Of a stretch of 24,000 nucleotides of DNA, positions 392-17,086 are shown piece by piece; the first letter of the stretch is position 1; each line of letters starts with the position of its first letter. The stretch spans positions 19,555-43,554 of the forward strand of contig CAUVKI010000012.1 in NCBI GenBank assembly GCA_963552605.1, written 5' to 3'. The position numbers and the translations under genes are program-made. The notes below the pieces were generated by a model. That model was not told the origin of the DNA. It saw only the letters and a program-made list of their open reading frames with translations, and did no database searches. This DNA comes from an uncultured Tissierellia bacterium. GTDB taxonomy: Bacteria; Bacillota; Clostridia; Tissierellales; Peptoniphilaceae.

Positions 392-3300
392 ATGCTGGAG
401 AATGTGGATTTTTATTCTATACAGATCGGTCTTGCAAGTCCGGATAAGATTAGGGAGTGGTCAAGGGGCGAAGTAAAAAAACCCGAAACCATAAACTACC
501 GCACACTTAAACCCGAACGTGAGGGGTTGTTTTGTGAAAAGATCTTCGGTCCTACCAAAGATTGGGAATGTTATTGCGGAAAATATAAGCGTGTGCGTTA
601 TAAGGGCGTGATTTGTGACAAGTGCGGAGTGGAGGTTACTAAATCCAAGGTGCGCCGTGAAAGAATGGGACATATCGAGCTTGCGTCGCCTGTTTCTCAC
701 ATATGGTATTTTAAGGGTGTTCCGTCGAGAATGGCATTGGTGCTTGACATAAAAGCCAAAGACCTTGAGGGAGTGCTTTATTTCTCGCGCTATATAGTTA
801 CGGATAAGGGAACTTATAGGCTGCCTCTAAAAGAAGTGCTTTCCGAGGGAGAATATCAGAAAGAAAAAGCCGAGGCGGAGGAAATGGGTTTAACCTTTAC
901 CGCTAAAATGGGAGCCGAGGCGATAGAAGATCTTTTGAAGAGTATAGATTTAAATGAGGAATCCGAAAAGCTTAAGAAGCAAATTGAAAAGACCGGAGGT
1001 CAATCAAAATCCAAACTTGTAAAGAGATTGGAAACAATCGAAAGCTTCAAAAAATCAGGAAATGATCCTGCGTGGATGATACTTAATGTCATACCGGTCA
1101 TTCCTCCGGATTTAAGACCTATGGTTGAGTTGGACGGCGGGAGATTTGCAACAAGCGACCTTAATGATCTTTATCGAAGAGTCATAAATCGCAACAACAG
1201 GCTAAAAAGACTTTTAGACCTCGGTGCACCTGAAATTATAGTGAGAAACGAAAAGAGAATGCTTCAGGAAGCCGTGGATTCGTTAATAGATAACGGCAGA
1301 AGGGGAAAGGCTGTAACCGGAGCGGGAAACAGAGAGCTCAAATCCTTATCGGGAATGCTTAAGGGAAAGCAAGGGCGTTTTCGTCAAAATCTTTTGGGAA
1401 AGCGGGTGGACTATTCAGGACGCTCCGTTATAGTGGTAGGTCCCGAACTCAAGTTCTATCAGTGTGGACTTCCGAAGGATATGGCTTTGGAGCTTTTTAA
1501 GCCTTTCGTTATGAAAAGACTGGTTGAGGAGAACTATGCGCATAACATAAAGTCTGCAAAACGAATGGTGGAACGGGCGGAAGCTGAAGTGTGGGATGCG
1601 TTGGAATATGTGATAGAGGATCACCCCGTTCTTTTAAACAGAGCCCCGACTCTTCACAGATTGGGAATACAGGCATTTGAGCCGTTGCTTGTTGAGGGAA
1701 AGGCCATAAAGCTTCACCCTTTGGTGTGCGCCGCTTTTAATGCGGACTTTGACGGAGATCAAATGCCAGTACACATTCCGATTTCCGTGGAAGCTCAAGC
1801 GGAAGCAAGAATGCTTATGCTCTCTACCAATAATATCCTCGCACCCAAAGACGGAAAACCCATAACCACACCTTCTCAAGATATGGTGCTCGGGTGTTAT
1901 TGGATTACAATGGAAATTGCCGGAGAAATAGGAGAGGGAAAGCTCTTTTGTGACTATAACGAAATGCTCACCGCTTTGGAACATAAAGCTGTGGGGCTTC
2001 ATTCAAGAGTTAAAGTGCGTGTCAAATTAAACAGCAAGGATAGAGGAAAGATAGTCGAGAGCACGGTCGGAAGATTTATAATGAATCAGGAAATTCCTCA
2101 GGATTTGGGATTTGTGGACAGGGAAAAAGACCCCTATTCCTTGGAAGTGGATTTCTTATTAAAGAAAAAACAACTAAGCCTCCTTGTTGAGAAATGCTAT
2201 AAAAAACACGGCAATATAAAGACTGCAAGGCTTTTGGATCATATTAAATCAACAGGATTTAAATATTCCACACTCGCCGCCATTTCAATTTCAATAGGAG
2301 ATATTTTAGTTCCGGATGCAAAGAGGGAAATCATTGCACAGGCTGAGGAAAAGGTCGAAAAAATTCAAAAGATTTTCAAAAGAGGTCTTATATCGGACGA
2401 TGAACGCTATGAAAAGGTAATTGAAACTTGGACAAAAGCCACGGATGATCTTACCAATATCCTTATGGATAATATGAATGAGCTTAACAATATATACATT
2501 ATGACCAACTCGGGTGCGAGAGGAAGTATGCAGCAAATTCGTCAGCTTGCCGGAATGCGGGGACTTATGGCATCAACTTCCGGAAAGACTGTCGAAATTC
2601 CAATCAAATCAAATTTCCGTGAAGGACTTTCCGTATTGGAGTTTTTTATATCAACTCACGGTGCAAGAAAAGGATTGGCGGACACCGCATTGCGCACGGC
2701 GGATTCGGGATATCTTACGAGAAGGTTGGTAGATGTAAGTCAGCAGGTGATTATCAGAGAAGAGGACTGCAAAACGGAGGAGTATTTGACCATCACCTCG
2801 TTTAAAGACGGCAATGAAGTCATTGAGGAATTGAAAGACCGAATTGAGGGAAGATATTCGGCGGAAACCGTAACCCATCCGGAAACGGGGGAAATAATAG
2901 TTGAAAAAGGCTGTATGATTTCTCAGGATCAGGCGGAAAAAATTCAAGATGCGGGGATAATAAGCGTAAAAGCCAGATCGGTTTTGGGGTGTCATTCAAA
3001 GCGGGGAGTCTGTGCTCATTGCTACGGCAGAAACTTAGCCCAAGACGGAGATATTCAGATAGGAGAATCCGTAGGAATTATAGCGGCTCAATCCATAGGA
3101 GAGCCGGGAACTCAGCTTACGATGAGAGGATTTCACACCGGAGGAGTGGCGGGAGTTGCGGATATAACCCAAGGCTTGCCCAGAGTTGAGGAACTTTTTG
3201 AAGCGAGAAAACCAAAAGGTCTTGCGGTGATAAGTGAAGTTGCAGGAGAAGTGTCAATAAGAGACAATGAGGACAAGAGAAAAGATGTGGTAATAATCGA

Positions 3301-3934
3301 CGAACAAGGCGAAGAACACATCTATCATATCAATTACGGATATAGAATTCTTGTGAAAGAAGGACAGTATGTGGAAGAAGCTCAGGCTCTTACGGACGGT
3401 TCAATTGACCCTCACGAGATAATGAAGATTAAGGGAATTGAAGCGGTTGAACACTATATAGTAAAAGAAGTGCAAAGAGTATATAAAATGGCGGGTATCG
3501 ACATCAATGATAAGCACATTGAATTGATAGTAAGGCAGATGCTCTCAAAAGTGAAGATAGGAAACCCCGGGGACTCCGAGTTTTTGCCGGGCTCCATGGT
3601 TTCGTGGCAGACATTCAATGCGGTCAATCGCAGACTTGAGGAGAATGGAGAAACCGCCTCCGAGGGGGAAAGAATTCTACTGGGAATTACAAAAGCCGCA
3701 CTTGCAACGGAATCTTTCCTTTCCGCCGCATCGTTCCAAGAAACTACAAGGGTTTTGACTCAAGCGGCGATAGAGGGAAAGAGAGACCATTTAGAGGGAC
3801 TTAAGGAAAATATAATCATAGGAAAGCTCATTCCTGCAGGTACGGGATTGGTAAGATATAGAAAAGTGGAAGTGGAAAAGGAAAAAAAGACGGAAAAAAT
3901 CCTTAGAGAGATTCCTGTTGAGGATCTGTTATAG
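392..3934 (+). CDS. rpoC: DNA-directed RNA polymerase subunit beta-prime
   Basis: 1180-aa ORF with SD aaggag at 381-386. It has the N-terminal zinc motif [23 protein letters not shown] and the catalytic NADFDGDQM motif, and sits immediately downstream of rpoB. Confidence 0.97.
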
Positions 3935-3961
3935 TCCTGACTTATGTCGTAATCGTGAAGC

Positions 3962-3997
3962 ATCGGCGACTGCAAAAATGTAGTCGCCGATTTTTTT
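3962..3997 (+). terminator. Rho-independent terminator of rpoC
   Basis: 13-bp stem atcggcgactgca / tgtagtcgccgat (one G-U pair), A-rich 4-nt loop, then T7 (3991-3997). Confidence 0.8.
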
Positions 3998-4010
3998 GCG
4001 AGTATCTGAT

Positions 4011-4120
4011 ACTATTATTTCTTTGAATTGTGGATATAAACAATTTGTACTCCACAGAAGATACACGAATTTTTGTGGTCGAAAAATAGATATAACCATA
4101 CCTCTATTGAATAATATAGT
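4011..4120 (+). repeat. MITE-like repeat, copy A (110 nt)
   Basis: Reverse-complement match to 6884-6982 with 3 substitutions, a 9-nt insertion (ctccacaga) and a 2-nt insertion. About 86% identical over ~78 nt to 9404-9480. Starts ACTATTATT and ends with an imperfect inverted copy, AATAATATAGT. Confidence 0.75.
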
Positions 4121-4224
4121 CGATTAACTTAGAATTACGAATCAGCCCTCCTTGCAATTCCTGCGTTTTATTTTTTAATTTATTCGGCTCATAAGATTAA
4201 AATACTATAGTATGAATTTTTTAT

Positions 4225-4261
4225 ATAAAAAACGGGCAAAAACTTCAGCCCGTTTTTTTTT
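4225..4261. terminator. Bidirectional intrinsic terminator (terminates the minus-strand two-gene operon)
   Basis: Stem aacgggc (4231-4237) / gcccgtt (4248-4254). It is flanked by an A-run on the left and a T-run on the right, so it reads as hairpin plus U-tract on both strands. The stop codon of the 77-aa ORF lies in the loop. Confidence 0.7.
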
Positions 4262-4478
4262 CATCAACCTCGCTCGGCACATGCCTATCCACATATCTAT
4301 CCAAAAGCCTGAAAAAGAGGATAATTGCAGTTATAAGGCACGCAATTCTGCATACAGCCCATAACTCAAAAGGCACAGGAAAATTCCGAATAAATATACT
4401 GAGGTCAAAAGACAGATATACGAGTGCGACTATGATAACCGCCTCTAAAAGGATACAAAACTTCTCTTCGTATCTCAT
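4245..4478 (-). CDS. Small membrane protein, 77 aa, two predicted TM helices and a charged C-terminus; no recognised family
   Basis: The ORF shares an ATGA start/stop overlap with the upstream gene. SD-like gagg lies 7 nt upstream. Hydrophobic stretches are FCILLEAVIIVALVYLSF and LWAVCRIACLITAIILFF, and the C-terminal tail is DRYVDRHVPSEVDEKKTG. Confidence 0.6.
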   Translation of the reverse strand: MRYEEKFCILLEAVIIVALVYLSFDLSIFIRNFPVPFELWAVCRIACLITAIILFFRLLDRYVDRHVPSEVDEKKTG

Positions 4479-4873
4479 GATTCAACCTCATAAATCTTTC
4501 TGCATACTACACGAACTCTCTTATTAGGTTTAACAGTGAATGTATGAGTTTCAGTTCTGACAAAAGAAAGATTTGGAGCTATTCCCAGACCCTTAATATC
4601 TCCTGAGAAAGTTGTTCCAAACGAAAGTGTTTCTGTGATCGTAATACTTCCCTCTGAATAGTGATAATATTTAGAAACGGTTTCGTAAGGTGAATACTCA
4701 TAATAAGTTCTCACGTTAATTGCCCTGTTCCTAATATCGTTTATGAACTTCGGTCTAATAGCTTCCTTCTCTGTGGCATCCTGCCCTCTTTGCGCAAACA
4801 CACTTGTGGGAAGCGCAAGAATCCCAATAGACAACAATAAAGCCAACACTGAAATAAACAACTTCTTTTTCAT
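4475..4873 (-). CDS. Secreted protein, 132 aa, Sec-type signal peptide; no recognised family
   Basis: Consensus SD aaggagg lies 5-6 nt upstream of the ATG. The N-terminus MKKKLFISVLALLLSIGILALPTSVFA/Q is a classic signal peptide with an AxA-like cleavage site. The mature part is Y/T/S-rich and looks beta-rich. Confidence 0.7.
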   Translation of the reverse strand: MKKKLFISVLALLLSIGILALPTSVFAQRGQDATEKEAIRPKFINDIRNRAINVRTYYEYSPYETVSKYYHYSEGSITITETLSFGTTFSGDIKGLGIAPNLSFVRTETHTFTVKPNKRVRVVCRKIYEVES

Positions 4874-5006
4874 ACTCTCCTCCTTAAATATCTTTTCAAC
4901 TGTCTTAACCTGTTCACTACTGACCGAGATAATTTTTGCCTAAAGCATTTGTCAGAAAACAGATCTGCTGACTTTGAGCTCACCTCACTTTCTCTCTCCT
5001 AAGCAC

Positions 5007-5033
5007 ATTATAATCCAAAAGAAAAAAAAACAA
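5007..5033 (-). promoter_or_regulatory. Candidate promoter for the minus-strand operon
   Basis: On the minus strand, TATAAT lies at 5012-5007 and a weak -35 ttgttt at 5033-5028, with a suboptimal 15-nt spacer. This would give a ~125-nt leader. Confidence 0.3.
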
Positions 5034-5132
5034 CCATTATTTTCGAAATAAATAAAATTTTAATATTAAAGAGATGAAATGTCTAATTCAAACACTTAAA
5101 TATTATAACCGTAGTTTGTTATGTAAATGTGT

Positions 5133-5160
5133 AAAAAAGAGCAGCCTAAGGACTGTTCTT
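5133..5160 (-). terminator. Orphan terminator-like hairpin (minus strand)
   Basis: 8-bp stem aagagcag (5137-5144) / ctgttctt (5153-5160) with one G-U pair. On the minus strand it is followed by a T-run. No ORF is evident upstream of it. Confidence 0.35.
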
Positions 5161-5333
5161 AACCTAATTTATCTCTGGGGGGAACTTTTTTATAGGGAGT
5201 TATCAGCACCACTTCTCCCTCGCTATAAGTGCCAAGCACCTGATTACATTTAAATCTCCTCCAAATTTTCCAACACTTCACATGTCAAATCCGATGACAA
5301 TTTTTATAAAGTAAAAACGACTTTCACCTTGTG

Positions 5334-5382
5334 TGGTAGAATATAATGATCACACAGAGTAAAAGTCGCTTTTTTAGGAGGA
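5334..5382 (+). promoter_or_regulatory. Candidate extended -10 promoter plus consensus SD abutting the rpoC fragment
   Basis: TGGTAGAAT at 5334-5342 overlaps TATAAT at 5342-5347. AGGAGGA lies at 5376-5382, and rpoC homology starts at 5391. There is no convincing -35. Confidence 0.35.
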
Positions 5383-5390
5383 ATAAGTTT

Positions 5391-6675
5391 GATGAACGCT
5401 ATGAAAAGGTAATTGAAACTTGGATAAAAGCCACGGATGATCTTACCAATATCCTTATGGATAATATGAATGAGCTTAACAATATATACATTATGACCAA
5501 CTCGGGTGCGAGAGGAAGTATGCAGCAAATTCGTCAGCTTGCCGGAATACGGCAATGAAGTCATTGAGGAATTGAAAGACCGAATTGAGGGAAGATACTC
5601 AGCGGAAACCGTAACCCACCCCGAAACGGGAGAAATAATAGTTGAAAAAGGCTGTATGATTTCTCAGGATCAGGCAGAAAAAATTCAAGATGCGGGGATA
5701 ATAAGCGTAAAAGCCAGATCGGTTTTGGGGTGTCATTCAAAGCGGGGAGTCTGTGCTCATTGCTACGGCAGAAACTTAGCCCAAGACGGAGATATTCAGA
5801 TAGGAGAATCCGTAGGAATTATAGCGGCTCAATCCATAGGAGAGCCGGGAACTCAGCTTACGATGAGAGGATTTCACACCGGAGGAGTGGCGGGAGTTGC
5901 GGATATAACCCAAGGCTTGCCCAGAGTTGAGGAACTTTTTGAAGCGAGAAAACCAAAAGGTCTTGCGGTGATAAGTGAAGTTGCAGGAGAAGTGTCAATA
6001 AGAGACAATGAGGACAAGAGAAAAGATGTGGTAATAATCGACGAACAAGGCGAAGAACACATCTATCATATCAATTACGGATATAGAATTCTTGTGAAAG
6101 AAGGACAGTATGTGGAAGAAGCTCAGGCTCTTACGGACGGTTCAATTGACCCTCACGAGATAATGAAGATTAAGGGAATTGAAGCGGTTGAACACTATAT
6201 AGTAAAAGAAGTGCAAAGAGTATATAAAATGGCGGGTATCGACATCAATGATAAGCACATTGAATTGATAGTAAGGCAGATGCTCTCAAAAGTGAAGATA
6301 GGAAACCCCGGGGACTCCGAGTTTTTGCCGGGCTCCATGGTTTCGTGGCAGACATTCAATGCGGTCAATCGCAGACTTGAGGAGAATGGAGAAACCGCCT
6401 CCGAGGGGGAAAGAATTCTACTGGGAATTACAAAAGCCGCACTTGCAACGGAATCTTTCCTTTCCGCCGCATCGTTCCAAGAAACTACAAGGGTTTTGAC
6501 TCAAGCGGCGATAGAGGGAAAGAGAGACCATTTAGAGGGACTTAAGGAAAATATAATCATAGGAAAGCTCATTCCTGCAGGTACGGGATTGGTAAGATAT
6601 AGAAAAGTGGAAGTGGAAAAGGAAAAAAAGACGGAAAAAATCCTTAGAGAGATTCCTGTTGAGGATCTGTTATAG
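5391..6675 (+). pseudogene. rpoC: Truncated, internally deleted duplicate of the rpoC 3' region
   Basis: 5391-5548 matches rpoC 2399-2556 and 5549-6675 matches rpoC 2808-3934. The 251 nt at 2557-2807 are missing, so the two blocks are out of frame. There is no native start. The 389-aa track ORF begins at a GTG in out-of-frame rpoC sequence. Confidence 0.9.
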
Positions 6676-6702
6676 TCCTGACTTATGTCGTAATCGTGAA
6701 GC

Positions 6703-6739
6703 ATCGGCGGCTGCAGAAATGTAGCCGCCGATTTTTTTT
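6703..6739 (+). terminator. Duplicate of the rpoC terminator (variant stem)
   Basis: Same hairpin as 3962-3997, but an A-T stem pair is replaced by G-C (6710/6725), there is one loop change (6716), and the tract is T8 rather than T7. Confidence 0.8.
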
Positions 6740-6824
6740 GGTATCTGTGTTTTTTATACTAAAATTCTATAAACTTATTGAATATCAAACATAAATATGC
6801 CGGACTAGCTTGGGGGTGAAATAA

Positions 6825-7186
6825 ATGCACAAAATACAACAACAAGAAGCAGAAAAGATAAAAGAAATGAGAAAGAAAGTAATACTATTATTCAATAGAA
6901 GTATGGTTATATATATTTTTCGACCATAAAAATTCGTGTATCTTACAAATTGTTTATATCCACAATTCAAAGAAATAATAGTATAAAATACAAAAGACTA
7001 TATGCAGTGCAGCTAAGAGCGGAAAGAAAAACCAATCAGGAAATAGCGGAAAAATTAGACACATCGGATAGGGTAGTAAGCAATTGGATATGCAAATATG
7101 TAAAAGAAGGAATAGAGGGATTATTAAGCAAACGACAAAAAGGAAATCACAGAAATATGACATTAAGGAAGGATAGTATAAGATAG
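6825..7186 (+). pseudogene. IS630-like transposase N-terminal HTH fragment, split by a MITE-like insertion and 3'-truncated
   Basis: SD gggggtga then ATG 6825 encodes MHKIQQQEAEKIKEMRKKV. After the 99-nt insert the ORF continues KYKRLYAVQLRAERKTNQEIAEKLDTSDRVVSNWICKYVKEGIEGLLSKRQKGNHRNM. This is a winged-helix/HTH pattern that I associate with IS630-family N-termini. No DDE domain follows. Confidence 0.6.
6884..6982 (-). repeat. MITE-like repeat, copy B (99 nt), inverted relative to copies A and C
   Basis: Perfect 9-bp terminal inverted repeats ACTATTATT / AATAATAGT, flanked by AT on both sides (6882-6883 and 6983-6984). About 97% identical to copy A apart from the indels. Confidence 0.75.
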
Positions 7187-7445
7187 TCGGCAGCTTTTTT
7201 AAAAAAGAGTTAAGCTCTAATCGTTGATAAATTTTTTGCAGGAAAAAATATCCGATATTTAGCTTGTTGCTTTCAGACATAATTTTATCAGTAGCCTTAA
7301 TTTTCTGAGCAAAATCAACTTTTATGTCTAAAAATAAATTTTAAAAATTTGACAAAAGAATGGAGCTATTTCAAGCTTTTTAAGGTGTTTGAGGCAATTT
7401 AACTGTCGAAAACCCGTTTCGTTTTCGATTGAATAACAAAAAATC

Positions 7446-7474
7446 TTGTTCCTTAGGTGAGTTATTGGTATAAT
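7446..7474 (+). promoter_or_regulatory. Candidate efp promoter
   Basis: TTGTTC (7446-7451), a 17-nt spacer, then extended -10 TGGTATAAT (7466-7474), about 30 nt upstream of the efp start. Confidence 0.5.
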
Positions 7475-7505
7475 AGGGGCGTAGGAATTGTTAAGGAGGA
7501 ATGAG

Positions 7506-8066
7506 ATGGTATCTGCTAGTGATTTTAAAAACGGCTTGACTTTCATTTTTGAGGGTGATGTGTATCAGGTCGTGGAATTTCAGCATGTGAAACCCGGAAA
7601 GGGGGCTGCTTTTGTGCGGACTAAAATCAAGTCCGTTATGAGCGGGGGTACGAAAGAGCTTACATTTAATCCGTCTGAGAAGTTTGAACAGGCTCAGCTT
7701 GAATCCAAGGAAATGCAATATCTCTATAATGAAGGCGAATTATACTACTTTATGGACAACGAAACCTATGAGCAAATTCCAATTTCCAAGGACAAGGTGG
7801 AGGACGCAATGAAATTCTTAAAGGAAAATGATAGTGCAAATATTCGTTTCTTTAAGGGAGAGCCTTTCGAGGTGCTTGCGCCGAATTTTGTGGAGCTTGA
7901 AGTTATTCACACGGAGCCGGGGGTTAAAGGAAACACGGCAACCGGAGCCAATAAGCCCGCAACCGTCAGCACGGGAGCGACCGTTACCGTTCCGCTTTTT
8001 GTAAACACCGGCGATGTCATTAAGATAGACACTCGTTCGGGAGAATATCTCTCAAGAGTACAATAG
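7506..8066 (+). CDS. efp: Elongation factor P
   Basis: [42 protein letters not shown] is the canonical EF-P N-terminus, including the KPGKG loop. SD aggagga lies at 7494-7500. The track ORF start at 7488 is probably too early. Confidence 0.95.
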
Positions 8067-8076
8067 GAGGTGTGTG

Positions 8077-8451
8077 ATGAGCTATTTAGGAGAAAGAGTA
8101 TCGTATCTAAGAGGTCTTTTGGAGGGAATGGAATTTGAATCCAAAAGCAGGGTAGGAAAGATTTTGAGTGAAGTGGTTGCCTGCATGGAGGATATGGCTG
8201 ATGAGATTGAAAGGCTTAGTGAAAATCAATCCGATTCGGACGAACTTTTAAATCTTTTAGATGAGGATTTGGAGGATTTGGAAGATTTCGTCTATGACGA
8301 TGATGAATATGACGGATACGATCGTTATGATGATTATGACGACGATGACGAGGACGATGACGACTTCGATTATGATTTTGACTATGACGACGATGACGAC
8401 GACTTCGATTACGATTTTGACGACGATGACGAGGACGATGACGAAGATTAG
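8077..8451 (+). CDS. CD1247 N-terminal-domain-like protein with a polyacidic D/E/Y/F tail
   Basis: The N-terminus MSYLGERVSYLRGLLEGM matches the small protein family commonly found downstream of efp in Clostridia. SD aggagg lies at 8065-8070. The C-terminal ~60 aa are almost entirely D/E/Y/F. Confidence 0.8.
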   Translation: MSYLGERVSYLRGLLEGMEFESKSRVGKILSEVVACMEDMADEIERLSENQSDSDELLNLLDEDLEDLEDFVYDDDEYDGYDRYDDYDDDDEDDDDFDYDFDYDDDDDDFDYDFDDDDEDDDED

Positions 8452-8472
8452 AAATTTTTGAAATCCGAAAAG

Positions 8473-8499
8473 GCTCGAGGTTTATGCTTCGGGCTTTTT
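8473..8499 (+). terminator. Intrinsic terminator of the efp operon
   Basis: Stem gctcgagg / cttcgggc (two G-U pairs), loop tttatg, then T5. Confidence 0.7.
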
Positions 8500-8593
8500 A
8501 GTTTCACGATAAACTAGTAATTTTTTAGAGAAATAGGATATGTTATGAATGGTGGGAGAATGGTGTTTGGGTAATTTTAGGGAATTTATTGAT

Positions 8594-8622
8594 TTGACAT
8601 TTATAAAAATATCTGCTAATCT
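8594..8622 (+). promoter_or_regulatory. Promoter of the type III TA locus
   Basis: TTGACA (8594-8599), an exact 17-nt spacer, then TAATCT (8617-8622) preceded by TGC, which gives an extended -10. Confidence 0.6.
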
Positions 8623-8629
8623 TTAAGCG

Positions 8630-8748
8630 GGTAAAGAGGGTGTCCCGCTACCGTTAAAGGTGGAACATTAAAGAAGGTGTCTCACTACCTATATCCCAAA
8701 GGTGAAGCATTAAAGCAAGCGGAGAGGGTAAAACCTCTCCGTTTTTTT
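8630..8748 (+). ncRNA. Candidate type III antitoxin RNA (ToxI-like tandem repeats ending in a terminator)
   Basis: There is no ORF. Tandem units occupy 8633-8669 (37 nt) and 8670-8711 (42 nt). They share cores aaaga(g/a)ggtgtc(c/t)c(g/a)ctacc (17/20) and aaaggtg(g/a)a(a/g)catt (12/14). A third unit starts at 8712 and runs into the terminator. The region lies between a promoter and a ToxN-like ORF. Confidence 0.6.
8720..8748 (+). terminator. Intrinsic terminator between the repeat RNA and the toxin ORF
   Basis: Stem cggagagg (8720-8727) / cctctccg (8734-8741), loop gtaaaa, then T7 (8742-8748). The toxin SD follows immediately. Confidence 0.75.
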
Positions 8749-8759
8749 AGGAGAAAGCA

Positions 8760-9317
8760 ATGGCAGAAGCGGTTAAATATGGATTTTATACTGTAAATCC
8801 CGATTATCTTGAATATCTGAGTAAAATAGACTCCGAAGTTTATTATGATCCATTGTATAGAAATAGTATCAAGCCATTTGTTGGAATTATTGTTGGGATA
8901 GAAAACTATAATTATTTTATTCCAATATCTTCTGCAAAGGAAAAACACAAAAGATGGAAGAATGTTTCTGATGAGCATTTTTTGATTTATGAAGTGATTG
9001 ATAATAGCATTACCATAAATGGAGATATTTATAAATACTATTCTGATAAAGAAAAAATGCACATATTATCTATACTGGATATTAAAAAAATGATACCTGT
9101 GCCAAATGGATGTTATGAAAGAATTATGTTTGATGAACTTGAGGACTTTAGATACAAAGACTTATTTGAAAAAGAATATGCTTTTTGCTTATCAATAAAA
9201 ACGAAGGTTTTGAAAAAAGTGGAAAAATTATATCAAAAGCAAAAAGAAACAGGAATCATTAGAAAAGCGAATTGCAATTTTTCAGAGTTGGAAAGAGCGA
9301 TGCTGGACTGGAAGTAA
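8760..9317 (+). CDS. toxN: ToxN/AbiQ-family type III toxin (endoribonuclease), 185 aa
   Basis: SD aggag lies 6 nt upstream. The protein shows landmarks I recall from ToxN/AbiQ: N-terminal FYTV..DYLEYLSKID, KPFVGIIVGI..YNYFIPISSAK, LDIKKMIPV, and C-terminal CNFSELE. Its size and the upstream repeat-terminator architecture also fit. Confidence 0.85.
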   Translation: MAEAVKYGFYTVNPDYLEYLSKIDSEVYYDPLYRNSIKPFVGIIVGIENYNYFIPISSAKEKHKRWKNVSDEHFLIYEVIDNSITINGDIYKYYSDKEKMHILSILDIKKMIPVPNGCYERIMFDELEDFRYKDLFEKEYAFCLSIKTKVLKKVEKLYQKQKETGIIRKANCNFSELERAMLDWK

Positions 9318-9341
9318 AAAAATTGCTTGCGAATAATCAAG

Positions 9342-9371
9342 GAAGTGGAATGCCAATCTACTTCTTTTTTT
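9342..9371 (+). terminator. Intrinsic terminator after toxN
   Basis: Stem gaagtgg / ctacttc (one G-U pair), 9-nt loop, then T7 (9365-9371). Confidence 0.65.
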
Positions 9372-9403
9372 ATGCAAGGGAAGATGATGGAAAGGCGGTT
9401 TAC

Positions 9404-9480
9404 ACTATTATTTCTTTGAATTGTAGATATCAACGATTTGTGCTCCTAAGAAGACACATGAATTTTTGCGGTCGCAAAAG
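9404..9480 (+). repeat. MITE-like repeat, copy C (partial, diverged)
   Basis: About 86% identical to the first ~78 nt of copy A in the same orientation. It retains the 9-nt segment that copy B lacks. The right-hand terminal repeat is absent. Confidence 0.6.
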
Positions 9481-9487
9481 GGAATTC

Positions 9488-9516
9488 TTGCAAACATATG
9501 GTTATTCTGCTACAAT
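9488..9516 (+). promoter_or_regulatory. Candidate promoter of the asp23-nusB operon
   Basis: TTGCAA (9488-9493), a 17-nt spacer, then TGCTACAAT extended -10 (9508-9516), 22 nt upstream of the asp23 ATG. Confidence 0.5.
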
Positions 9517-9538
9517 ACCATCATTCGGAGGTGTTAAT

Positions 9539-9928
9539 ATGTTGGAGACATATGAAGTTTTAGACAATGGAGAAATAAAAATTTCAGACCATGTGATTTC
9601 CGTTATAGCAACGGTGGCTGCATTGAGCGTCGGCGGAGTGAGCAGAATGAGCGGAACTTTGACGGAAGACTTGCAGACGAAATTAAGACTTAAGACGGAA
9701 GACGGCAAGGGAGTGAAGGTCAGTTTAAAGGATAATCGTTTGGAGATTTGTCTTTATATCTTTGTGGATTACGGCTATCCTCTGATGGAGGTGGCTGAAG
9801 ATGTGCAAAGAGCGGTTTCCGAATCCATAAAGTCAATGACGGATATGGAAATAGGCTCCGTAGATGTAAGCATTGAGGGAGTCACCATAAATAAGGAATT
9901 AAAGTCCGTGCCCAAAGCGTCGAGATGA
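9539..9928 (+). CDS. Asp23/Gls24-family envelope stress protein
   Basis: SD ggaggtg lies at 9527-9533. MLETYEVLDNGEIKISDHVISVIATVAALSVGGVSRMSG is a typical Asp23 N-terminus. The longer track ORF (9272) runs through a terminator and repeat copy C. Confidence 0.85.
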   Translation: MLETYEVLDNGEIKISDHVISVIATVAALSVGGVSRMSGTLTEDLQTKLRLKTEDGKGVKVSLKDNRLEICLYIFVDYGYPLMEVAEDVQRAVSESIKSMTDMEIGSVDVSIEGVTINKELKSVPKASR

Positions 9929-10356
9929 GCAGAACCCAAACACGCCAAGTGCTTATCGGTCTTCTTTATGCCGCAGATATAAACGGAGATTTCTCCGAAA
10001 ACTTTTTTTTAAGTCAGTCGGCTTCCTTTCCGACCGAAAGCGGAGAGGAAGCCAAAGTGATTTCGGAAGATGACCGAGACTTTTTATGGGATATACTAAG
10101 GGGAATTATGGATAATAAATCCGTCTTGGATAATTATATCTCCGAAGGCTCCGAGGGCTGGACCATTGACAGAATAGGAAGAGTCGAGCTTGCGGTGCTG
10201 AGGGGAGCTATCTATGAGTTGTTATTCAGAAAAGATATTCCCATAGAAGTGGTTGTTAATGAAGCGGTTGAAAACTCCAAGCGTTTCGGAAAAGAGGACA
10301 GTTATCGTTTTGTCAACGGGGTTTTGGCTTATGTGATAAAAAAGGAGAGAGTTTGA
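9925..10356 (+). CDS. nusB: Transcription antitermination factor NusB
   Basis: Contains DRIGRVELAVLRGAIYELLF..IPIEVVVNEAVENSKRFG..SYRFVNGVL, and has an ATGA overlap with asp23. Confidence 0.9.
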   Translation: MSRTQTRQVLIGLLYAADINGDFSENFFLSQSASFPTESGEEAKVISEDDRDFLWDILRGIMDNKSVLDNYISEGSEGWTIDRIGRVELAVLRGAIYELLFRKDIPIEVVVNEAVENSKRFGKEDSYRFVNGVLAYVIKKERV

Positions 10357-11612
10357 AAGGATATTTTTCCGTATCTGATGTAAATCAGTATCTTCTGAAA
10401 GTAATAAAAGACGATTTTATATTGACAAGGCTTATGGTCAAGGGAGAGGTGTTTAATAAAAGACATCACCCCTCCGGAGTTATTTATTTCACCCTTAAAG
10501 ACGAACATTCCTCAATTAACTGCAGGATTTCGGAAAAGACCGGGAGCTTCCGTTCCATTGAGGACGGTATGGAGATTATATTAAGCGGCAGAGTTTCCTT
10601 AAATTCACATCAGGCAAGCTGCGTAATTATAGCGGAAAGTTTTGAAGAAACAGGTATGGGAGCTGTTTTCAGGGAATTTTACAGAAAAAAGAAATCGCTT
10701 GAGGAGAAGGGATATCTGGATGAGTCCGTGAAACGACCAATCCCGAGAGCAAAGAAGATAGGAATTGTGACCAGCGAGATAGGTGCGGTGGTGCACGATA
10801 TAATTACGGTTTCAAAGAGCAGAAATCCCTCCGTAAGCTTATATCTCTACCCCGCTTCCGTACAGGGCGAGAATGCTGTCGGAGAAGTGATTGAGGGAAT
10901 AAATTTTTTCAACAATATGTTTCCCGTAGATGTCATTATTTTCGGAAGAGGCGGCGGCTCATATGAGGAACTGAATATTTTCAATGACGAGGAACTTTGT
11001 GAAGTCGTCGCAAACAGTAAAATTCCTACAATCTCCGCAGTAGGACATGAAACCGACATCGTGCTTTCGGATTATGCGGCGGACAGGCGTGCCGCCACCC
11101 CGTCGCAAGCGGCGGAAATGGCGGTTGTGGAGAGAAAGGTTCTTTTCGGAGAGGCTAAAGAATTAAATGATAGACTTATTTCGATTTTTTCAAGCTGTCT
11201 TAAAGAAAAAACAATATTTTTAGACGAACTTGATAAAAGACTCAATCTGTCTTTTGGCAAAAAATTGGAGCTTGATAAAAAATTTCTCCTCGCACTTAGA
11301 CGCAGGCTTGACATATGCAATCCTGAACTTATGCTTGTTAGACAATTCGGGAAATTGGAAGAATTGAGCAAATCATTAAACTTTTCGAGCAGGTATTATT
11401 TTTCGGAGCGTTTTTCATCACTTGAGAAGCTCAATTCAAGGCTTGAAATTGCGTATAAAGAAACGCTTGCAGCCGCAAAGCCCGAAGTTAGAAATATTGA
11501 AGGAGAACCTTTGCAGGGTGTTAAAGATTTGTCGGTCGGAGAAACGGTTTCCCTAATTTTTCCCGACGGGGTCGCCTTTTTGGAAGTGAAAAAGATACAG
11601 GAAGGGTTTTGA
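10353..11612 (+). CDS. xseA: Exodeoxyribonuclease VII large subunit
   Basis: TTG start after SD aaggagag. It has an OB-fold N-terminus (VSDVNQYLLKVI, VKGEV), the central GRGGGS motif, and ISAVGHETD. xseB follows. Confidence 0.9.
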   Translation: MKGYFSVSDVNQYLLKVIKDDFILTRLMVKGEVFNKRHHPSGVIYFTLKDEHSSINCRISEKTGSFRSIEDGMEIILSGRVSLNSHQASCVIIAESFEETGMGAVFREFYRKKKSLEEKGYLDESVKRPIPRAKKIGIVTSEIGAVVHDIITVSKSRNPSVSLYLYPASVQGENAVGEVIEGINFFNNMFPVDVIIFGRGGGSYEELNIFNDEELCEVVANSKIPTISAVGHETDIVLSDYAADRRAATPSQAAEMAVVERKVLFGEAKELNDRLISIFSSCLKEKTIFLDELDKRLNLSFGKKLELDKKFLLALRRRLDICNPELMLVRQFGKLEELSKSLNFSSRYYFSERFSSLEKLNSRLEIAYKETLAAAKPEVRNIEGEPLQGVKDLSVGETVSLIFPDGVAFLEVKKIQEGF

Positions 11613-11613
11613 T

Positions 11614-11826
11614 ATGACATATGAGGAGGCTATGGCTCGCCTTGAGGAGATAGTCGGACTTTTGGAAGAAAATAAGGTTTCTCTTTCCGAAGCTGTGGAC
11701 TTGTACAAGGAGGGAGCGAAATTATCCTTGGAAATCAGAGATATGTTGGAGAATGCCGAAGGAGAAGTGGCAAAACTCGGCGGAGATTTAAAAAAAGAGG
11801 GATTTTCTAAGTATGAGGGATTTTGA
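11614..11826 (+). CDS. xseB: Exodeoxyribonuclease VII small subunit
   Basis: 70-aa protein beginning MTYEEAMARLEEIVGLLEENKVSLSEAVDLYKEG, adjacent to xseA. Confidence 0.85.
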   Translation: MTYEEAMARLEEIVGLLEENKVSLSEAVDLYKEGAKLSLEIRDMLENAEGEVAKLGGDLKKEGFSKYEGF

Positions 11827-12646
11827 ATTATATTTGGAGGAACTTTTGCCGTCCGAAAGGGACAATTTATCCAAAGCGGTGAGATATGCGGTTTTCCCGG
11901 GAGGAAAACGGCTTAGAAGCACTTTTTTGCGCAGAGCTTTTTTGTGCTTTGCGGACGGTGTTGCACTTGAGAGAGGGGAGGAGTTTTGCTATCCCGAGGC
12001 GGCAGCTGTGGAGCTTATTCACTCATATTCTCTAATTCACGACGATTTACCCTCTATGGATGATGACGATGAAAGACGTGGAAAGCCGAGTGTACATAAG
12101 GCCTTTGGAGAGGGAATGGCGGTACTTGCCGGAGATTTACTCCTGAACTTGGCTTATGAAACGGGATTTTCCTCACTTTGCAAAGAGAAAAATCAGGAGC
12201 TTTTGCAAAGAAAGATTAAATCATTAGATTTAATTTCACGTTATGCGGGAAAAGACGGTATGGTCGGCGGGCAAGGGATTGACATAACCAAGGTTATTGA
12301 CGATTATTCACAAGATGATAAAGAGTTTTTAAAGATGACAAAAATGAAAACCGCTTGTCTGATAGTTGCGGCATTGGAGGGCGGAGCTTGCTTGGGAAAT
12401 CCGTCAGAGGGCGAATTTAAAGCCGTAGGAGAATTCGGATATGCCTACGGTATGGCGTTTCAAGCGGCGGACGATATCTCCGATTATAAAAGGGATTTAG
12501 CTGATGAAAAGCCGACTTTTGCAACTCTTTACGGAGAGGACGAGGCAAAACGAAAACTTGAACTCTATAAGGAGCGGGCAAAGTCGGCTCTTATGAGTAT
12601 AAAGAGAAACACTGAGTTTTTCAAAGAACATTTAGCCAAGTTATGA
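11813..12646 (+). CDS. ispA: Polyprenyl (farnesyl/geranyl) diphosphate synthase
   Basis: The first Asp-rich motif is LIHDDLPSMDDDDERRGKPS and the second is FQAADDISD. Confidence 0.85.
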   Translation: MRDFELYLEELLPSERDNLSKAVRYAVFPGGKRLRSTFLRRAFLCFADGVALERGEEFCYPEAAAVELIHSYSLIHDDLPSMDDDDERRGKPSVHKAFGEGMAVLAGDLLLNLAYETGFSSLCKEKNQELLQRKIKSLDLISRYAGKDGMVGGQGIDITKVIDDYSQDDKEFLKMTKMKTACLIVAALEGGACLGNPSEGEFKAVGEFGYAYGMAFQAADDISDYKRDLADEKPTFATLYGEDEAKRKLELYKERAKSALMSIKRNTEFFKEHLAKL

Positions 12647-13428
12647 TGTACCGATTGGATTTGCTGCTGGTAAAACGGGAATTATCTCCCTCAAGGGAGA
12701 AAGCCCGTGAATTTATAAAATCGGGCTGCGTGAAAGTAAACGGCAACCCGATTTTAAAACCTTCGCATAAAACGGAAGAAACTGCGTATATAGATATAAA
12801 ACCGCTCTATCCCTTTGTGGGGCGAGGGGGAGTGAAGTTGAATTATCTCTTGGAGAAAAAAATCGTATCTTTCAAAGATTTGGAAGTGTTGGATATAGGA
12901 GCTTCCACGGGAGGATTTACGGAAGTTATACTTAAAGACGGAGCAAGATCTGTTACGGCTTTAGATGTCGGAAAAAATCAGCTTGCCGATAAACTTAAGC
13001 TTGATCCGAGAGTTACTGTCAGGGAAAATACGGACATAAGGGACGCAGTTTTCAATAACGGATTTGATGCCGCAACGGTTGATGTTTCCTTTATCTCTAT
13101 AAAAAAAGTATTGCCGAGAGTCGTTGAACTTATAGATGACGGATTTATATGTGTGCTTTTTAAGCCTCAGTTTGAGGCGGGAAAATTGCGCAAAAAACAC
13201 GGAATATTTAATGATATTTCCTTACATAAAAATTTATTGCTTGAGTATGAACACTTTGTAAAAGGTTTGGGCATGGGAATAAAATTTATATCACCCTCTC
13301 CGATAAGAGGAGGCAGCGGAAATATTGAATATATTTCCGTTTTGGTTTTCGGGGATTTTTCCATAAATACTTCCGATGTTGCGGACAAAGCTTTTCAAAA
13401 CCTTGTTGACGGGAGATTAAAATGTTAG
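12643..13428 (+). CDS. tlyA: TlyA-family rRNA 2'-O-methyltransferase
   Basis: S4-like N-terminus (RLDLLLVKRELSPSREKAREFIKSG.VKVNG), then FtsJ-like LDIGASTGGFTEV. Confidence 0.85.
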   Translation: MMYRLDLLLVKRELSPSREKAREFIKSGCVKVNGNPILKPSHKTEETAYIDIKPLYPFVGRGGVKLNYLLEKKIVSFKDLEVLDIGASTGGFTEVILKDGARSVTALDVGKNQLADKLKLDPRVTVRENTDIRDAVFNNGFDAATVDVSFISIKKVLPRVVELIDDGFICVLFKPQFEAGKLRKKHGIFNDISLHKNLLLEYEHFVKGLGMGIKFISPSPIRGGSGNIEYISVLVFGDFSINTSDVADKAFQNLVDGRLKC

Positions 13429-15098
13429 TTGAGCTTGCAATCAAAAATTATGCAATTATCACCGACTTGAATATAGCTTTTGAAAAGGGTCTAAATGTGA
13501 TAACAGGAGAAACCGGAGCCGGAAAATCAATAATATTTGACGCTCTCAATGTGTCTTTAGGAGCGAGAGGCAGCAGAGATGTTTTGAAATTTCCGGATAA
13601 AAATGCACATATAGATAGTGTTTTTGAGCTAACCTCTTCTGATAAACTTTTTGCAAAGGAACAATTGGACTTTGACTGTGAAGATACCGTTATCTTTTCA
13701 AAGGAAGTGCGCCCCAACGGTTCGACTTCCTCAAAAATTGACGGAAAAATTTTCACTCAGGGTGCAGTGCAGGGCTTTTCGGATAAGTTAATTCATATCT
13801 ACGGTCAGCATGAACAATTGGAGTTAATGGACGAAAAAAATCACATATCGCTTTTGGATCAGATGGGAGACGAAGACTTTAGGAATACCTTATCCGAATA
13901 TCGGAAAGATTATGATGAATACAGGTCATTGCTTTCGGAATTTAAGGATTTTAACTTGGACGAAGAAGCTTTAAATCGGGAGTTGGATTTTTACAATTTT
14001 CAGATTTCGGAGATAAACGAAGTTTCCTTAGTTTCAGGAGAAGATGAAGAACTTGAGTATGAGGAACAAAAGCTTTCTCATCAGGCTGAACTCATAACTT
14101 TGGTTTCTGAAATCAATGATTTGTTTAACGGGAGAGAGTACGGGTTTGGGGGATTGTTGTCGGATTTGAATTTTCTTTCGGAGAAGATTAAGTCTATTTC
14201 TCATATCGACGGTGAGAGGGAAAAATGGGTTGAAAGAGCCGAAAGCATTTACTTTGAGACGGAAGACTTAAAGAGAGAGGTATCGGGGTATCTTTCTTCT
14301 CTCAATCCCGATGATGAAAGATTATACGAGGTCAGAGAAAGACTTAACTCCATAAATAAGTTGAAGATGAAATACGGAAAAACCATAGAGGAAATTTTGG
14401 ATTACTTGGAGAATACGGAAAAGAAATATGAGGAGCTTTTAAGTTATAACGAGCGTATGGAAAATGCAAGGGAAGAATTATCTTCAAAGAAAAAAAGCCT
14501 GATTGAAAAAGCTTCGGTTATAACGGATATGAGAAAAAATATTTCCGAGAACTTGTCCAAAGCGCTTGAAGCCGAACTCAAAGAACTCAATATGAAAGAC
14601 ACCGTGATTAGAGTGGAATTTGAAGAGTCGGATTTGAGCGAAAACGGAGCGGATTCGGTGAGGTTTATGATTTCCACAAATAAAAATATGCCGCTAAAGC
14701 CCCTTTCAAAAATTGCTTCAGGCGGCGAGATGTCAAGAATAATGCTGGGGTTAAAAACCGTGGTTTCGGAAAGTTTTTGCACTTTGGTATTTGACGAAAT
14801 TGACACGGGGATTTCCGGTGCTGCCGTAAAGGCGGTGGGATTAAAGTTGAAAGCTTTATCAAAAAATCATCAGGTGATTGTGATATCGCACCTGCCTCAA
14901 ATCGCCGCAATTGCAGACACTCACTTTTTAATCCGAAAAGAGTCCGACGCTTTGGGAGTTTCAACAACGGTTATAAAACTTAATGAGGAAGAGCGCATAA
15001 GGGAAATTGCCGCTTTATTGTCAGGAGAGTCCGAAACCGCTTTGAAACACGCCAGAGAGATGATAAACGAATACAAAGGAGGACATAATGGAGTTTGA
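13422..15098 (+). CDS. recN: DNA repair protein RecN
   Basis: Contains Walker A GETGAGKSII, a long coiled-coil middle region, the signature SGGEMSRIML, and Walker B LVFDEIDTG. Confidence 0.93.
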   Translation: MLVELAIKNYAIITDLNIAFEKGLNVITGETGAGKSIIFDALNVSLGARGSRDVLKFPDKNAHIDSVFELTSSDKLFAKEQLDFDCEDTVIFSKEVRPNGSTSSKIDGKIFTQGAVQGFSDKLIHIYGQHEQLELMDEKNHISLLDQMGDEDFRNTLSEYRKDYDEYRSLLSEFKDFNLDEEALNRELDFYNFQISEINEVSLVSGEDEELEYEEQKLSHQAELITLVSEINDLFNGREYGFGGLLSDLNFLSEKIKSISHIDGEREKWVERAESIYFETEDLKREVSGYLSSLNPDDERLYEVRERLNSINKLKMKYGKTIEEILDYLENTEKKYEELLSYNERMENAREELSSKKKSLIEKASVITDMRKNISENLSKALEAELKELNMKDTVIRVEFEESDLSENGADSVRFMISTNKNMPLKPLSKIASGGEMSRIMLGLKTVVSESFCTLVFDEIDTGISGAAVKAVGLKLKALSKNHQVIVISHLPQIAAIADTHFLIRKESDALGVSTTVIKLNEEERIREIAALLSGESETALKHAREMINEYKGGHNGV

Positions 15099-15651
15099 AG
15101 AAACCACCATAAAATCCGAAAAAATTTACCAAGGGAAAATTTTAAATCTCAGGTGCGATACTGTGGAACTTCCCGGAAAAAAATACAGTAAGAGAGAGCT
15201 TGTAGAAGTATCACCCGCCGCCGCCGTCGTACCTGTTACGCAAGACGGAAATGTTATTCTCGTAAAGCAATTTAGAAAACCGTTTGAGAGAGTTTTGCTT
15301 GAGGTACCCGCCGGAAAACTTGATCCCGGAGAAGAACCGAGAGAAGCGGCATTCAGAGAACTGGAAGAAGAAACGGGTAAGCGTGCCGGAAAGCTTGTAT
15401 ATCTGAATGAAATTTTCACTTCTCCCGGCTATATCAATGAAAAAATTCATCTGTTTTTGGCAACGGAACTTGAGGACGGAGAATATAAACCCGATGATGA
15501 CGAGATTATGGAAGTCGTGTTGTATAACTTTGATGAACTTAAAAAGATGATTACCAGAGGTGAACTTTCCGATGCAAAGTCAATCATTGCAATCACTATG
15601 GCAATTGATTACCTCAAAGAGAAGAACTTATTGAAAGGTGAAAAAAAATGA
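15088..15651 (+). CDS. NUDIX hydrolase (ADP-ribose pyrophosphatase-like)
   Basis: The Nudix box is GKLDPGEEPREAAFRELEEETG. Confidence 0.85.
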   Translation: MEFEETTIKSEKIYQGKILNLRCDTVELPGKKYSKRELVEVSPAAAVVPVTQDGNVILVKQFRKPFERVLLEVPAGKLDPGEEPREAAFRELEEETGKRAGKLVYLNEIFTSPGYINEKIHLFLATELEDGEYKPDDDEIMEVVLYNFDELKKMITRGELSDAKSIIAITMAIDYLKEKNLLKGEKK

Positions 15652-16457
15652 ACAATAAAGAAAAATTTGCGGCATTTATAAGGGAAAGAATAAAAGACAT
15701 TCCCGATGTTGCGGTGGTTTTGGGTTCAGGGCTTGGAGATTTATCTTCTGAAATTGAAGAACCCGTAATAATTCCATATGGAGAAATTCCCGATTATCCG
15801 CTCTCAAATGTTAAAGGACATAACGGGCGTTTTGTGTACGGAAAACTTTCCGGAAAAAAGGTTATTTGCGAGGACGGAAGACTTCATTACTATGAAGGAC
15901 ACAGCATGGAAAAAGTTGTCCTTCCGATAAGACTCTTCGGAGCTTTAGGAATAAAAAACTTAATTCTTTCAAATGCTTCGGGCGGAGTCAACAGAGATTT
16001 CAAGGCGGGGGATTTGATGATTATAAGAGATCATTTGAATTTCACCGGAATAAATCCTCTTGTGGGTGAGAACGACGATAGCATCGGTCCGAGATTTCCG
16101 GATTTGGGAGATGCCTACTGCGAAGAACTTAGAAATTTGGCAAAGAGAGCGGCTCAAAGGCTGGAAATAGATTATAGAGAAGGGGTTTATGCGTTTTTGA
16201 CGGGACCTTCCTATGAAACTCCCGCAGAGGTTTCGGCGATTCGCATTATGGGGGGAGATGCGGTCGGAATGAGTACGGTTCCCGAAGTGATAGTTGCAGT
16301 TCATCAGGGAATGAGGGTGCTTGGAATTTCCTCCATTTCAAATCTTGCCGCCGATTTATCGAAAACTCCTATAACGCACGATATGGTTTTGAAGGTTGCG
16401 GACAGTGTTAAAGCCAAGTTTGTACCTTTGGTTAAGGAAATAATAAGAGAGATTTAA
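15648..16457 (+). CDS. punA: Purine nucleoside phosphorylase (trimeric PNP-I type)
   Basis: Contains VLGSGLG, GHNGRFVYG, GRLHYYEG, and the MSTVPEV motif. Confidence 0.88.
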   Translation: MNNKEKFAAFIRERIKDIPDVAVVLGSGLGDLSSEIEEPVIIPYGEIPDYPLSNVKGHNGRFVYGKLSGKKVICEDGRLHYYEGHSMEKVVLPIRLFGALGIKNLILSNASGGVNRDFKAGDLMIIRDHLNFTGINPLVGENDDSIGPRFPDLGDAYCEELRNLAKRAAQRLEIDYREGVYAFLTGPSYETPAEVSAIRIMGGDAVGMSTVPEVIVAVHQGMRVLGISSISNLAADLSKTPITHDMVLKVADSVKAKFVPLVKEIIREI

Positions 16458-16471
16458 CATCGGAGTTTAAA

Positions 16472-17086
16472 ATGCCTGTTACAGCTAAAATTTTAGATTT
16501 TTTCCTTATGCTTCCCGCTCTTTATCTTGCGATTGTGCCGCACGAGCTTGCACACGGATTTGTGGCGAATAAATTGGGGGATCCGACTGCAAAAAATATG
16601 GGAAGGCTCACCTTAAATCCTCTAAGCCATTTTGACCCGCTCGGTTTTATGGCTCTTATATTTTTCAAATTCGGTTGGGCAAAACCCGTGCCCGTAGATC
16701 CCAACTACTTCAAAGATTATAAAAAAGGTATGAGGTATGTGGCGGCGGCAGGACCTTTGATGAATTTTTTAATAGCGGTTATTGCGGCACTGCTTCTCAG
16801 AGTCATCTATTACGCAGGTTTTAATCAGGAGATTATTTTTAGGATATTGCTCAATATAGTTCTATACAGCGTCGTGTTGGGAGTTTTTAATTTACTTCCT
16901 CTGCCTCCGCTTGACGGCTCAAAGGTTTTGCGTTCATTTCTGTCATATGAAACGGACGATTTTTTTATGAGAAACGAAAGAATTCTGTCCGTTATAACAA
17001 TGTTCCTGATTATAAGCGGACTTACAGGAAGAATTATATTTCCCATAACCAATTCCATTTTGCGGCATCTGCTCGGAGGAATATGA
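16472..17086 (+). CDS. Site-2 protease (M50) family membrane metalloprotease
   Basis: Contains the HELAHG zinc motif, multiple TM segments, and NLLPLPPLDG. Confidence 0.8.
   Translation: MPVTAKILDFFLMLPALYLAIVPHELAHGFVANKLGDPTAKNMGRLTLNPLSHFDPLGFMALIFFKFGWAKPVPVDPNYFKDYKKGMRYVAAAGPLMNFLIAVIAALLLRVIYYAGFNQEIIFRILLNIVLYSVVLGVFNLLPLPPLDGSKVLRSFLSYETDDFFMRNERILSVITMFLIISGLTGRIIFPITNSILRHLLGGI

Follow-up and report, generated by a model that had tools for sequence, protein, structure and literature searches.

A partial direct duplication of rpoC downstream of the intact gene in an uncultured Tissierellia bacterium

Introduction

Partial tandem duplications and Campbell-type insertions leave direct repeats of the 3' part of a gene on either side of an unrelated insert, one repeat belonging to the complete gene and the other being truncated at its 5' end. 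The novel joint is made without homology, a secondary frameshifting deletion may be found in the truncated repeat, and the two repeats are able to recombine the insert out. A comparable layout, with a functional gene followed by inserted DNA and a displaced duplicate 3' end, is produced by integrative elements that replace the 3' end of a gene, the repeats in that case being att sites of tens of bases. The gene concerned here, rpoC, encodes the beta-prime subunit of RNA polymerase, which is naturally divided between two polypeptides in cyanobacteria (rpoC1/rpoC2) and in archaea (A'/A''). A literature search returned only plastid cases.

The window, by which the whole 24,000-nt stretch of DNA analysed here is meant (from contig CAUVKI010000012.1 of GenBank assembly GCA_963552605.1), was found to carry a second rpoC 3' end close to an intact rpoC gene. 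The arrangement has each of the properties listed above for a partial duplication, and differs from the known cases in that the parent is an essential, normally single-copy gene, in that the structure persists across strains, and in that the variation in the copy looks shaped by selection, most probably by way of exchange with the parent. Integrative elements share the overall layout, but here the insert has no integrase or recombinase and is just 1.4 kb of orphan genes and a miniature inverted-repeat transposable element (MITE), while the repeat is 1.35-1.6 kb long (158 + 1,190 nt of coding copy in the present case). An integrative element was rejected on these two grounds, the lack of a recombinase in the insert and the length of the repeats, which is far too great for att sites. 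The likeness to split beta-prime lies in the position of the break, as residue 670, at which the copy starts, falls near position 88 when set against the cyanobacterial rpoC2 profile, not far from a natural split point; the difference is that a full-length rpoC is present and that the fragment has no visible translation signals and, in this window, lacks the bridge helix. A split rpoC in the window was rejected because the full-length gene is present. Thus the feature is of an ordinary kind and reveals no new mechanism; it is unusual mainly for its rpoC parent and for being maintained, and polymorphic, in a poorly sampled species.

Results and Discussion

The rpoC gene and its partial copy

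The translation of rpoC in the window is 100% identical to cluster member P0128. The copy lies 1.46 kb downstream of this working gene as a direct repeat, lacks codons 1-669, and is made of two blocks, B' and C' (Table 1), which together differ from the parent at 10 positions across 1,348 nt; with >99% identity over 1.35 kb, chance resemblance is not a concern. The sole difference between B and B' (2433 C, 5425 T) is at a second codon position and changes Thr to Ile; a single difference at 5425 had been stated in the preliminary description of the locus, which was made by reading the sequence. That description had also equated 2808-3997 with 5549-6739; the match stands, while the equality does not, as nine of the 1,190 nt differ, and the copy ends at 6738. 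Six of the nine (2857, 2860, 2878, 2881, 2890 and 2935) fall within 80 nt, every one of them synonymous and at a third codon position, and the remaining three (3969, 3975 and 3984) are inside the terminator. From 2936 to 3968 the gene has no mismatch with 5677-6709 over 1,033 nt, in agreement with the earlier reading.

Table 1 Features of the duplicated region, with positions in the window.
Feature	Position	Strand	Basis
rpoC, full-length parent gene (beta-prime, 1180 aa)	392..3934	+	ORF call and translation
Parent block B, first base is the start of codon 670	2399..2556	+	repeat comparison
Parent segment m, 251 nt, missing from the copy	2557..2807	+	repeat comparison and alignment
Parent block C: last 375 codons, stop codon, terminator	2808..3997	+	repeat comparison
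rpoC intrinsic terminator, 13-pair hairpin and T-run	3962..3997	+	terminator detection
MITE copy R-, about 104-111 nt, abutting right edge of duplicated segment	4009..4119	-	sequence comparison
Spacer u	4120..4275	.	sequence; colinear in L104 and L012
77-aa ORF, predicted membrane protein, no family match	4245..4478	-	ORF list and profile searches
132-aa ORF, signal-peptide-like N-terminus, orphan	4475..4873	-	ORF list and homologue search
Cassette intergenic region, 517 nt	4874..5390	.	sequence
Copy block B' (2399-2556, 1 difference)	5391..5548	+	repeat comparison
389-aa ORF, GTG start, 14 out-of-frame residues and beta-prime 806-1180	5506..6675	+	ORF list
Copy block C' (2808-3997, 9 differences), terminator 6703-6738 within	5549..6738	+	repeat comparison
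Flank d: left end and start codon (ATG 6825) of IS630-family transposase remnant	6739..6882	+	comparison with L015, and profile
MITE copy R+, inserted in the IS630 remnant	6883..6986	+	comparison with L015
Rest of IS630 transposase N-terminal helix-turn-helix remnant	6987..7186	+	NF033545, profile positions 1-56 of 299
efp, first intact core gene past the spacer	7506..8066	+	profile search

Segment m, absent from the copy, measures 3x83+2 nt, so that B' and C' are out of frame with each other, and the 251-nt loss with its frame consequence had been correctly recognized. It encodes 84 aa that align to residues 743-823 of E. coli beta-prime, a region that includes the bridge helix. At the deletion joint the sequences compare as AAT/GCGG and AAG/ACGG. 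The cgg/acgg microhomology proposed for this junction is therefore right as to the CGG, found one base inward, and not as to a true microhomology, no base being identical at the joint itself. At the right edge a weak homology goes on for about 10 nt beyond the T-run (GTATCTG, to 4008/6747) and ends exactly where the MITE begins; spacer u and flank d showed no homology to each other, and the duplication thus reaches no further than about 4008/6747. On the whole, the repeat comparison bore out the earlier notion of a second rpoC 3' end that carries its terminator, is truncated at the 5' side, internally deleted and broken in frame.

The terminator was detected in both copies as a 13-pair hairpin followed by a T-run. 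Positions 3969 and 3984 pair together, as A-T in rpoC and as G-C in the copy (6710/6725), which amounts to a compensatory change; the G.T intermediate occurs in most of the other contigs described below, and G-C in two of them (L102 and L104). The mixed threading of these contigs weakens the inference that the terminator alleles belong to one copy only.

DNA between the repeats

The repeats flank a 1.39-kb insert composed of the MITE, spacer u and a cassette of two orphan genes that lie on the opposite strand. The spacer includes a hairpin with T/A runs at about 4231-4262, located 3' of the 77-aa gene. Neither of the two insert ORFs matched a Pfam, NCBIfam or PHROG family, and searches of both against the same three collections disclosed no integrase or recombinase. 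The 132-aa protein has no homologues, finding only itself among 5.8 billion clusters, and an exact look-up of the 77-aa ORF gave no record. At the right end of the cassette intergenic region a rightward extended -10-like sequence TGGTAGAAT, an AGGAGG and an ATG (5392) were recognized by eye as a promoter and ribosome-binding site, now joined to rpoC codon 670.

Two variants of the insert were noted in other contigs. In L008 the cassette intergenic region is 13% different, indels included, while the adjoining 132-aa gene is identical. It was rejected that L008 might represent a 96% strain, the divergence being concentrated in the 517-nt region, which appears to be a local hypervariable or recombined patch; as the divergence is local, it was no longer argued that the flanks diverge faster than the copy. 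In L001 (1206-1256) and L002 (1146-1176) the sequence differs to the left of window position 4276, the rest being 100% identical. These contigs end 51 and 31 nt, respectively, past the 4275/4276 break, about one k-mer length, which suggests that in these strains a repeated or mobile element may be inserted in the 3' end of the 77-aa gene.

Mobile-element remnants between the copy and efp

The MITE, here designated R, is a non-coding element of about 104 nt with terminal inverted repeats of 11-12 nt (TACTATTATT(T)C) and TA flanks, and is present in three copies in the window, the third, at 9399-9479, being partial. R+ is missing from L015, in which flank d and the helix-turn-helix ORF form a single intact ORF of 89 aa, with a match to positions 1-56 of the 299-position IS630 transposase model. 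In L009, R has a different flank, the 3' end of a convergent ORF taking the place of spacer u; by eye, this ORF looks like a methyl-accepting chemotaxis protein. A part of the third copy (9410-9453) is missing from L012, L014 and L015. Given the terminal inverted repeats, the TA flanks and the presence/absence polymorphism, R qualifies on sequence features as a MITE of IS630 type, and an Rfam scan of the whole window gave no family over threshold, so the dispersed repeat is not a known RNA. IS630/Tc1-mariner-type MITEs thus offer a parallel in length (~104 nt), inverted repeats, TA, polymorphism and the adjoining IS630 remnant, the transposase near the element being merely a 56-residue N-terminal remnant; the difference is that R is the context of the duplication and not the duplication itself. 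The spacer between rpoC and efp thus reads as a rearrangement-prone patchwork of mobile-element debris. An exact look-up of efp, with its TTG start, gave no record.

In Firmicutes, rpsL-rpsG-fusA usually follow rpoC. The order found past rpoC in the window is instead efp, an Asp23-family gene, nusB and xseA.

Coding potential of the copy

The only long ORF in the copy ends in the last 375 aa of beta-prime. As had been noted before, it has a GTG start and 14 residues read out of frame ahead of these 375, and no Shine-Dalgarno sequence is visible by eye before GTG 5506. ATG 5346, from which a 70-aa ORF starts here and a 526-aa ORF in L012, was likewise judged by eye to be without a Shine-Dalgarno sequence, and the good AGGAGG at 5376 serves an ATG in another frame, from which a peptide of six residues is read. 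The 389-aa ORF is thus probably not expressed. With codons 1-669 and the bridge-helix region missing, and with no usable start, the copy is read as a pseudogene with no coding role, whose sole activity would be that of a homologous partner of rpoC. When homologues of the 389-aa ORF were sought, all those returned were relatives at 54-67% identity, the cluster of the protein itself not being among them. The ORF is an annotation trap, being called as a gene with an RNA_pol_Rpb1_5 domain.

Joints of the duplication in independent contigs

Independent contigs, designated by numbers with the prefix L, were gathered by exact-protein look-ups, and their cohort-style sample names suggest that they come from human microbiome studies. 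L001 and L002 are 100% identical to 4276-5480 and 4276-5420, respectively, and span the joint between cassette and copy. L008 covers 4570-6960 and includes both outer joints, the identical deletion and flank d. The deletion joint is present in L009 and L010, and L012 extends from 4158 onward through efp and further. L104 is colinear with 2805-4469 and is the sole independent support for the succession of rpoC terminator, R-, spacer u and cassette. Taken joint by joint, 5390/5391 (cassette to B') occurs in L001, L002, L008 and L012, the deletion joint 5548/5549 in L008, L009, L010, L103 and L104, and that between C' and d in L008, L012, L102 and L103.

The novel joints therefore recur in at least eight independent metagenome contigs from several cohorts and assemblers. 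The preliminary description had named an assembly or strain-mixture artefact as what would refute the duplication; this fails, since all three copy-specific joints were found in assemblies of other samples. Collapse of strain variants cannot create such joints, and, judged from these contigs, the duplication is present in the organism and is not a one-off assembly error. With one full-length essential gene, the order in the window is the sole arrangement that uses every observed edge.

Outside this set of contigs the species is poorly represented. No second rpoC 3' piece occurred in any of 80 rpoC loci of distant relatives, a baseline taken from a protein scan and reaching at most 69% identity; additional matches ~5 kb upstream in these loci are probably rpoB. 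The nearest rpoC 3' regions have <=69% amino-acid identity, and the family names met among the matches indicate Clostridia or Tissierellia. JGI metagenomes scanned for exact 41-mers had 0 matches, exact look-ups of the window rpoC and of P0128 gave no record, and no close match to the species was found in a GTDB-representative scan or in the JGI collection. A scan of genome contigs for the duplicated C-terminal part returned only a 53% Actinomycetota match, in a setting where short-read metagenome-assembled genomes would drop such a repeat.

Threading of short-read contigs through the repeat

Almost all combinations of left entry, middle and right exit occur across the contigs. In the window, the first copy reads rpoC 5' part, m and R-, and the second reads cassette, deletion and d, the latter path being shared by L008. 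L102 combines the rpoC 5' part with m and d, L103 the rpoC 5' part with the deletion and d, and L104 the rpoC 5' part with the deletion and R-; L012 passes from the cassette through m to d, and L009 and L010, which start at block B, lead through the deletion to R-. A full-length rpoC without the bridge helix cannot function, and it follows that some of these contigs are artefacts that arose by threading across the shared blocks. Links were regarded as trustworthy only when shorter than the k-mer length. L103 and L104 show an apparently deleted full-length rpoC as 726-aa and 389-aa ORFs, and L012 has an rpoC fragment of 526 aa; all of these most likely result from mis-threading at the repeat. 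The undeleted copy that yields the 526-aa ORF in L012 could be of this kind, as could, to a lesser degree, the single-copy state of L102.

The least secure part of the structure is the 1,033-nt identity, which may reflect assembler collapse or gene conversion. The identical core begins past 2935, the last SNP chained to the deletion joint, and stops before 3969, the first one chained to the right flank; bounded in this way by SNP clusters linked to unique flanks, it has the pattern that bubble-popping would also leave. rpoC serves as a marker in phylogeny and typing. In this species, however, short-read assemblies break or mis-thread the gene, and typing of the species by rpoC from short reads is unreliable.

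Probable exchange between gene and copy

Among all versions of the duplicated region, 32 of the 36 variable coding sites are at third codon positions, as against about one third for a freely drifting pseudogene, so that the even spread expected under neutrality was not observed. The variation was thus shaped in a functional rpoC and reached the copy by exchange, or else the contigs report a collapsed pair. The signal comes from contigs and not from phased rpoC sequences of other strains, and conversion and contig collapse may both fit it; either way, gene and copy are near-identical within each genome.

L102 (ERZ26867812 NODE_1085) is a full rpoB-rpoC contig with a single rpoC. L102 and a second contig of its sample, L013, have the same coverage, and L013 matches window 6930-18066 at 100% identity. 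Over 608-2856 L102 does not differ from the window; beginning at 2857 it has the alleles of the copy at all six sites (2857-2935) and at the three in the terminator, and it then runs into flank d of the copy with 0 mismatches, crossing all four potential branch points. The distance from segment m to 2857 is 50 nt, below k=55, and a window-type genome has no 55-mer joining m to the copy alleles; with the link shorter than k, the linkage in L102 is real and is no graph chimera of a window-type genome. The protein clusters contain no cassette protein and no 389-aa ORF from the ERZ26867812 assembly. The simplest reading is that L102 would be a single-copy haplotype one crossover, in 2808-2856, from the window, and most likely it arose by repeat-mediated pop-out, favoured because the duplication joints are common to strains differing by 1-2%.

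Two details of L102 do not fit this reading well. L102 differs from both window gene and copy at 21 sites in 3022-3847, where the window copies are identical, so that a simple pop-out would call either for a further conversion event there or for collapse of this stretch in the window assembly. The crossover would have to lie within 49 of the 1,190 nt; as a speculation, the narrowness of this interval might come from resolution beside the 251-nt heterology. Together with the third-position bias, L102 lends support to the earlier suggestion that the copy serves as a recombination substrate beside rpoC. The copy seems to exchange sequence with its parent and occasionally to resolve to a single copy. 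The locus offers a natural instance in which strains keep a long direct repeat of part of an essential gene, and it could serve for work on gene conversion and repeat-mediated deletion in a human-associated, uncultured Firmicute.

Origin of the duplication

With a probability of about 0.75, part of rpoC has genuinely been duplicated in direct orientation, the repeat extending from codon 670 to ~10 nt past the terminator, and the downstream copy is a pseudogene and a passive recombination partner of the gene. From the way the sequences are related, the joints shared with other assemblies, the distribution of alleles and the haplotype of L102, we infer the following course. One illegitimate join would have fused the right end of the cassette to rpoC codon 670, by tandem duplication or by a Campbell-type or homology-facilitated insertion, and the 251 nt would have been lost after it. 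Exchange or gene conversion may since have kept the copy rpoC-like, and repeat-mediated pop-out could delete the insert, fusing rpoC to the 3' part of the copy.

The reverse history, in which the copy is the original rpoC 3' end of the lineage and the functional 3' end (from ~2857 on) was imported with the MITE, spacer and cassette, is considered rather unlikely, even if it would concern the origin only and leave the copy a pseudogene. The imported DNA could have arrived through one homologous crossover together with one illegitimate join, or as a circular fragment inserted in the Campbell manner. The near-identical, single-rpoC L102 has, as this history would have it, the copy alleles at 2857-2935 and in the terminator along with the flank of the copy; the real gene of the window has other alleles from 2857 on; and the right edge of homology coincides with the end of the MITE. 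Against this, the cassette-B' joint and the deletion joint are also found in L008, L012 and L104, strains 1-2% different. Shared joints make the duplication older than the split between window and L102, and its loss in L102 is then more parsimonious than its gain in the window. Moreover, the patch of the window gene that carries the first allele is the common allele in all other strains.

Far less probable are two further readings. Mis-joined strain variants or repeats might have produced the duplication, or its adjacency to rpoC, in a source that is apparently an uncultured organism; the inconsistent threading of the locus and the bubble-popping pattern around the 1,033-nt core are what such mis-joining could leave, but collapse does not make the copy-specific joints, which came from at least eight contigs of different cohorts and assemblers, and L104 independently gives the order C, terminator, MITE, spacer and cassette, as L008 and L012 give cassette, copy, d and efp. 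To the same very low degree it is credible that the copy is expressed as a C-terminal beta-prime fragment modulating RNA polymerase, or that beta-prime is assembled from two polypeptides. L104 and L103 do read from the rpoC 5' part through B into the deletion, and L012 from the cassette through B', m and C' with an intact 526-aa ORF (a 15-aa leader and residues 670-1180). L104 equals L012 across a 312-nt overlap, and their B blocks differ at 2440 and 2488, which, if they are from one genome, would preclude a chimera at k=141; the third-position bias is equally expected from selection on the copy. These contigs are, however, from different samples; both the window and L102 have rpoC intact at 1180 aa; ATG 5346 lacks a visible Shine-Dalgarno sequence, and the AGGAGG at 5376 leads to an out-of-frame ATG and a 6-aa peptide; and all path combinations are present, as random threading through a repeat graph predicts. 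The more specific form of this idea, that some strains have the deletion in the first copy and make beta-prime as overlapping polypeptides 1-721 and 670-1180, has a slighter chance still; if true, an essential RNA polymerase subunit would have been split recently by way of a duplication, and the split would be polymorphic in one species.

Other features of the window

Past efp, an ORF at 8074-8451 was found to combine a CD1247 N-terminal domain (NF045650) with a highly acidic, repetitive tail rich in Asp, Tyr and Phe, the tail being the source of the tandem repeats at 8263-8450. The layout at 8598-9317 is that of a type III toxin-antitoxin system, with a ToxN-family toxin gene at 8760-9317 (PF13958, E=6.5e-41). 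Upstream of this gene are a TTGACA-type promoter-like site and two to three imperfect repeats of ~42-44 nt (8622-8729), and a hairpin with a T-run stands immediately 5' of the ribosome-binding site of the toxin gene.
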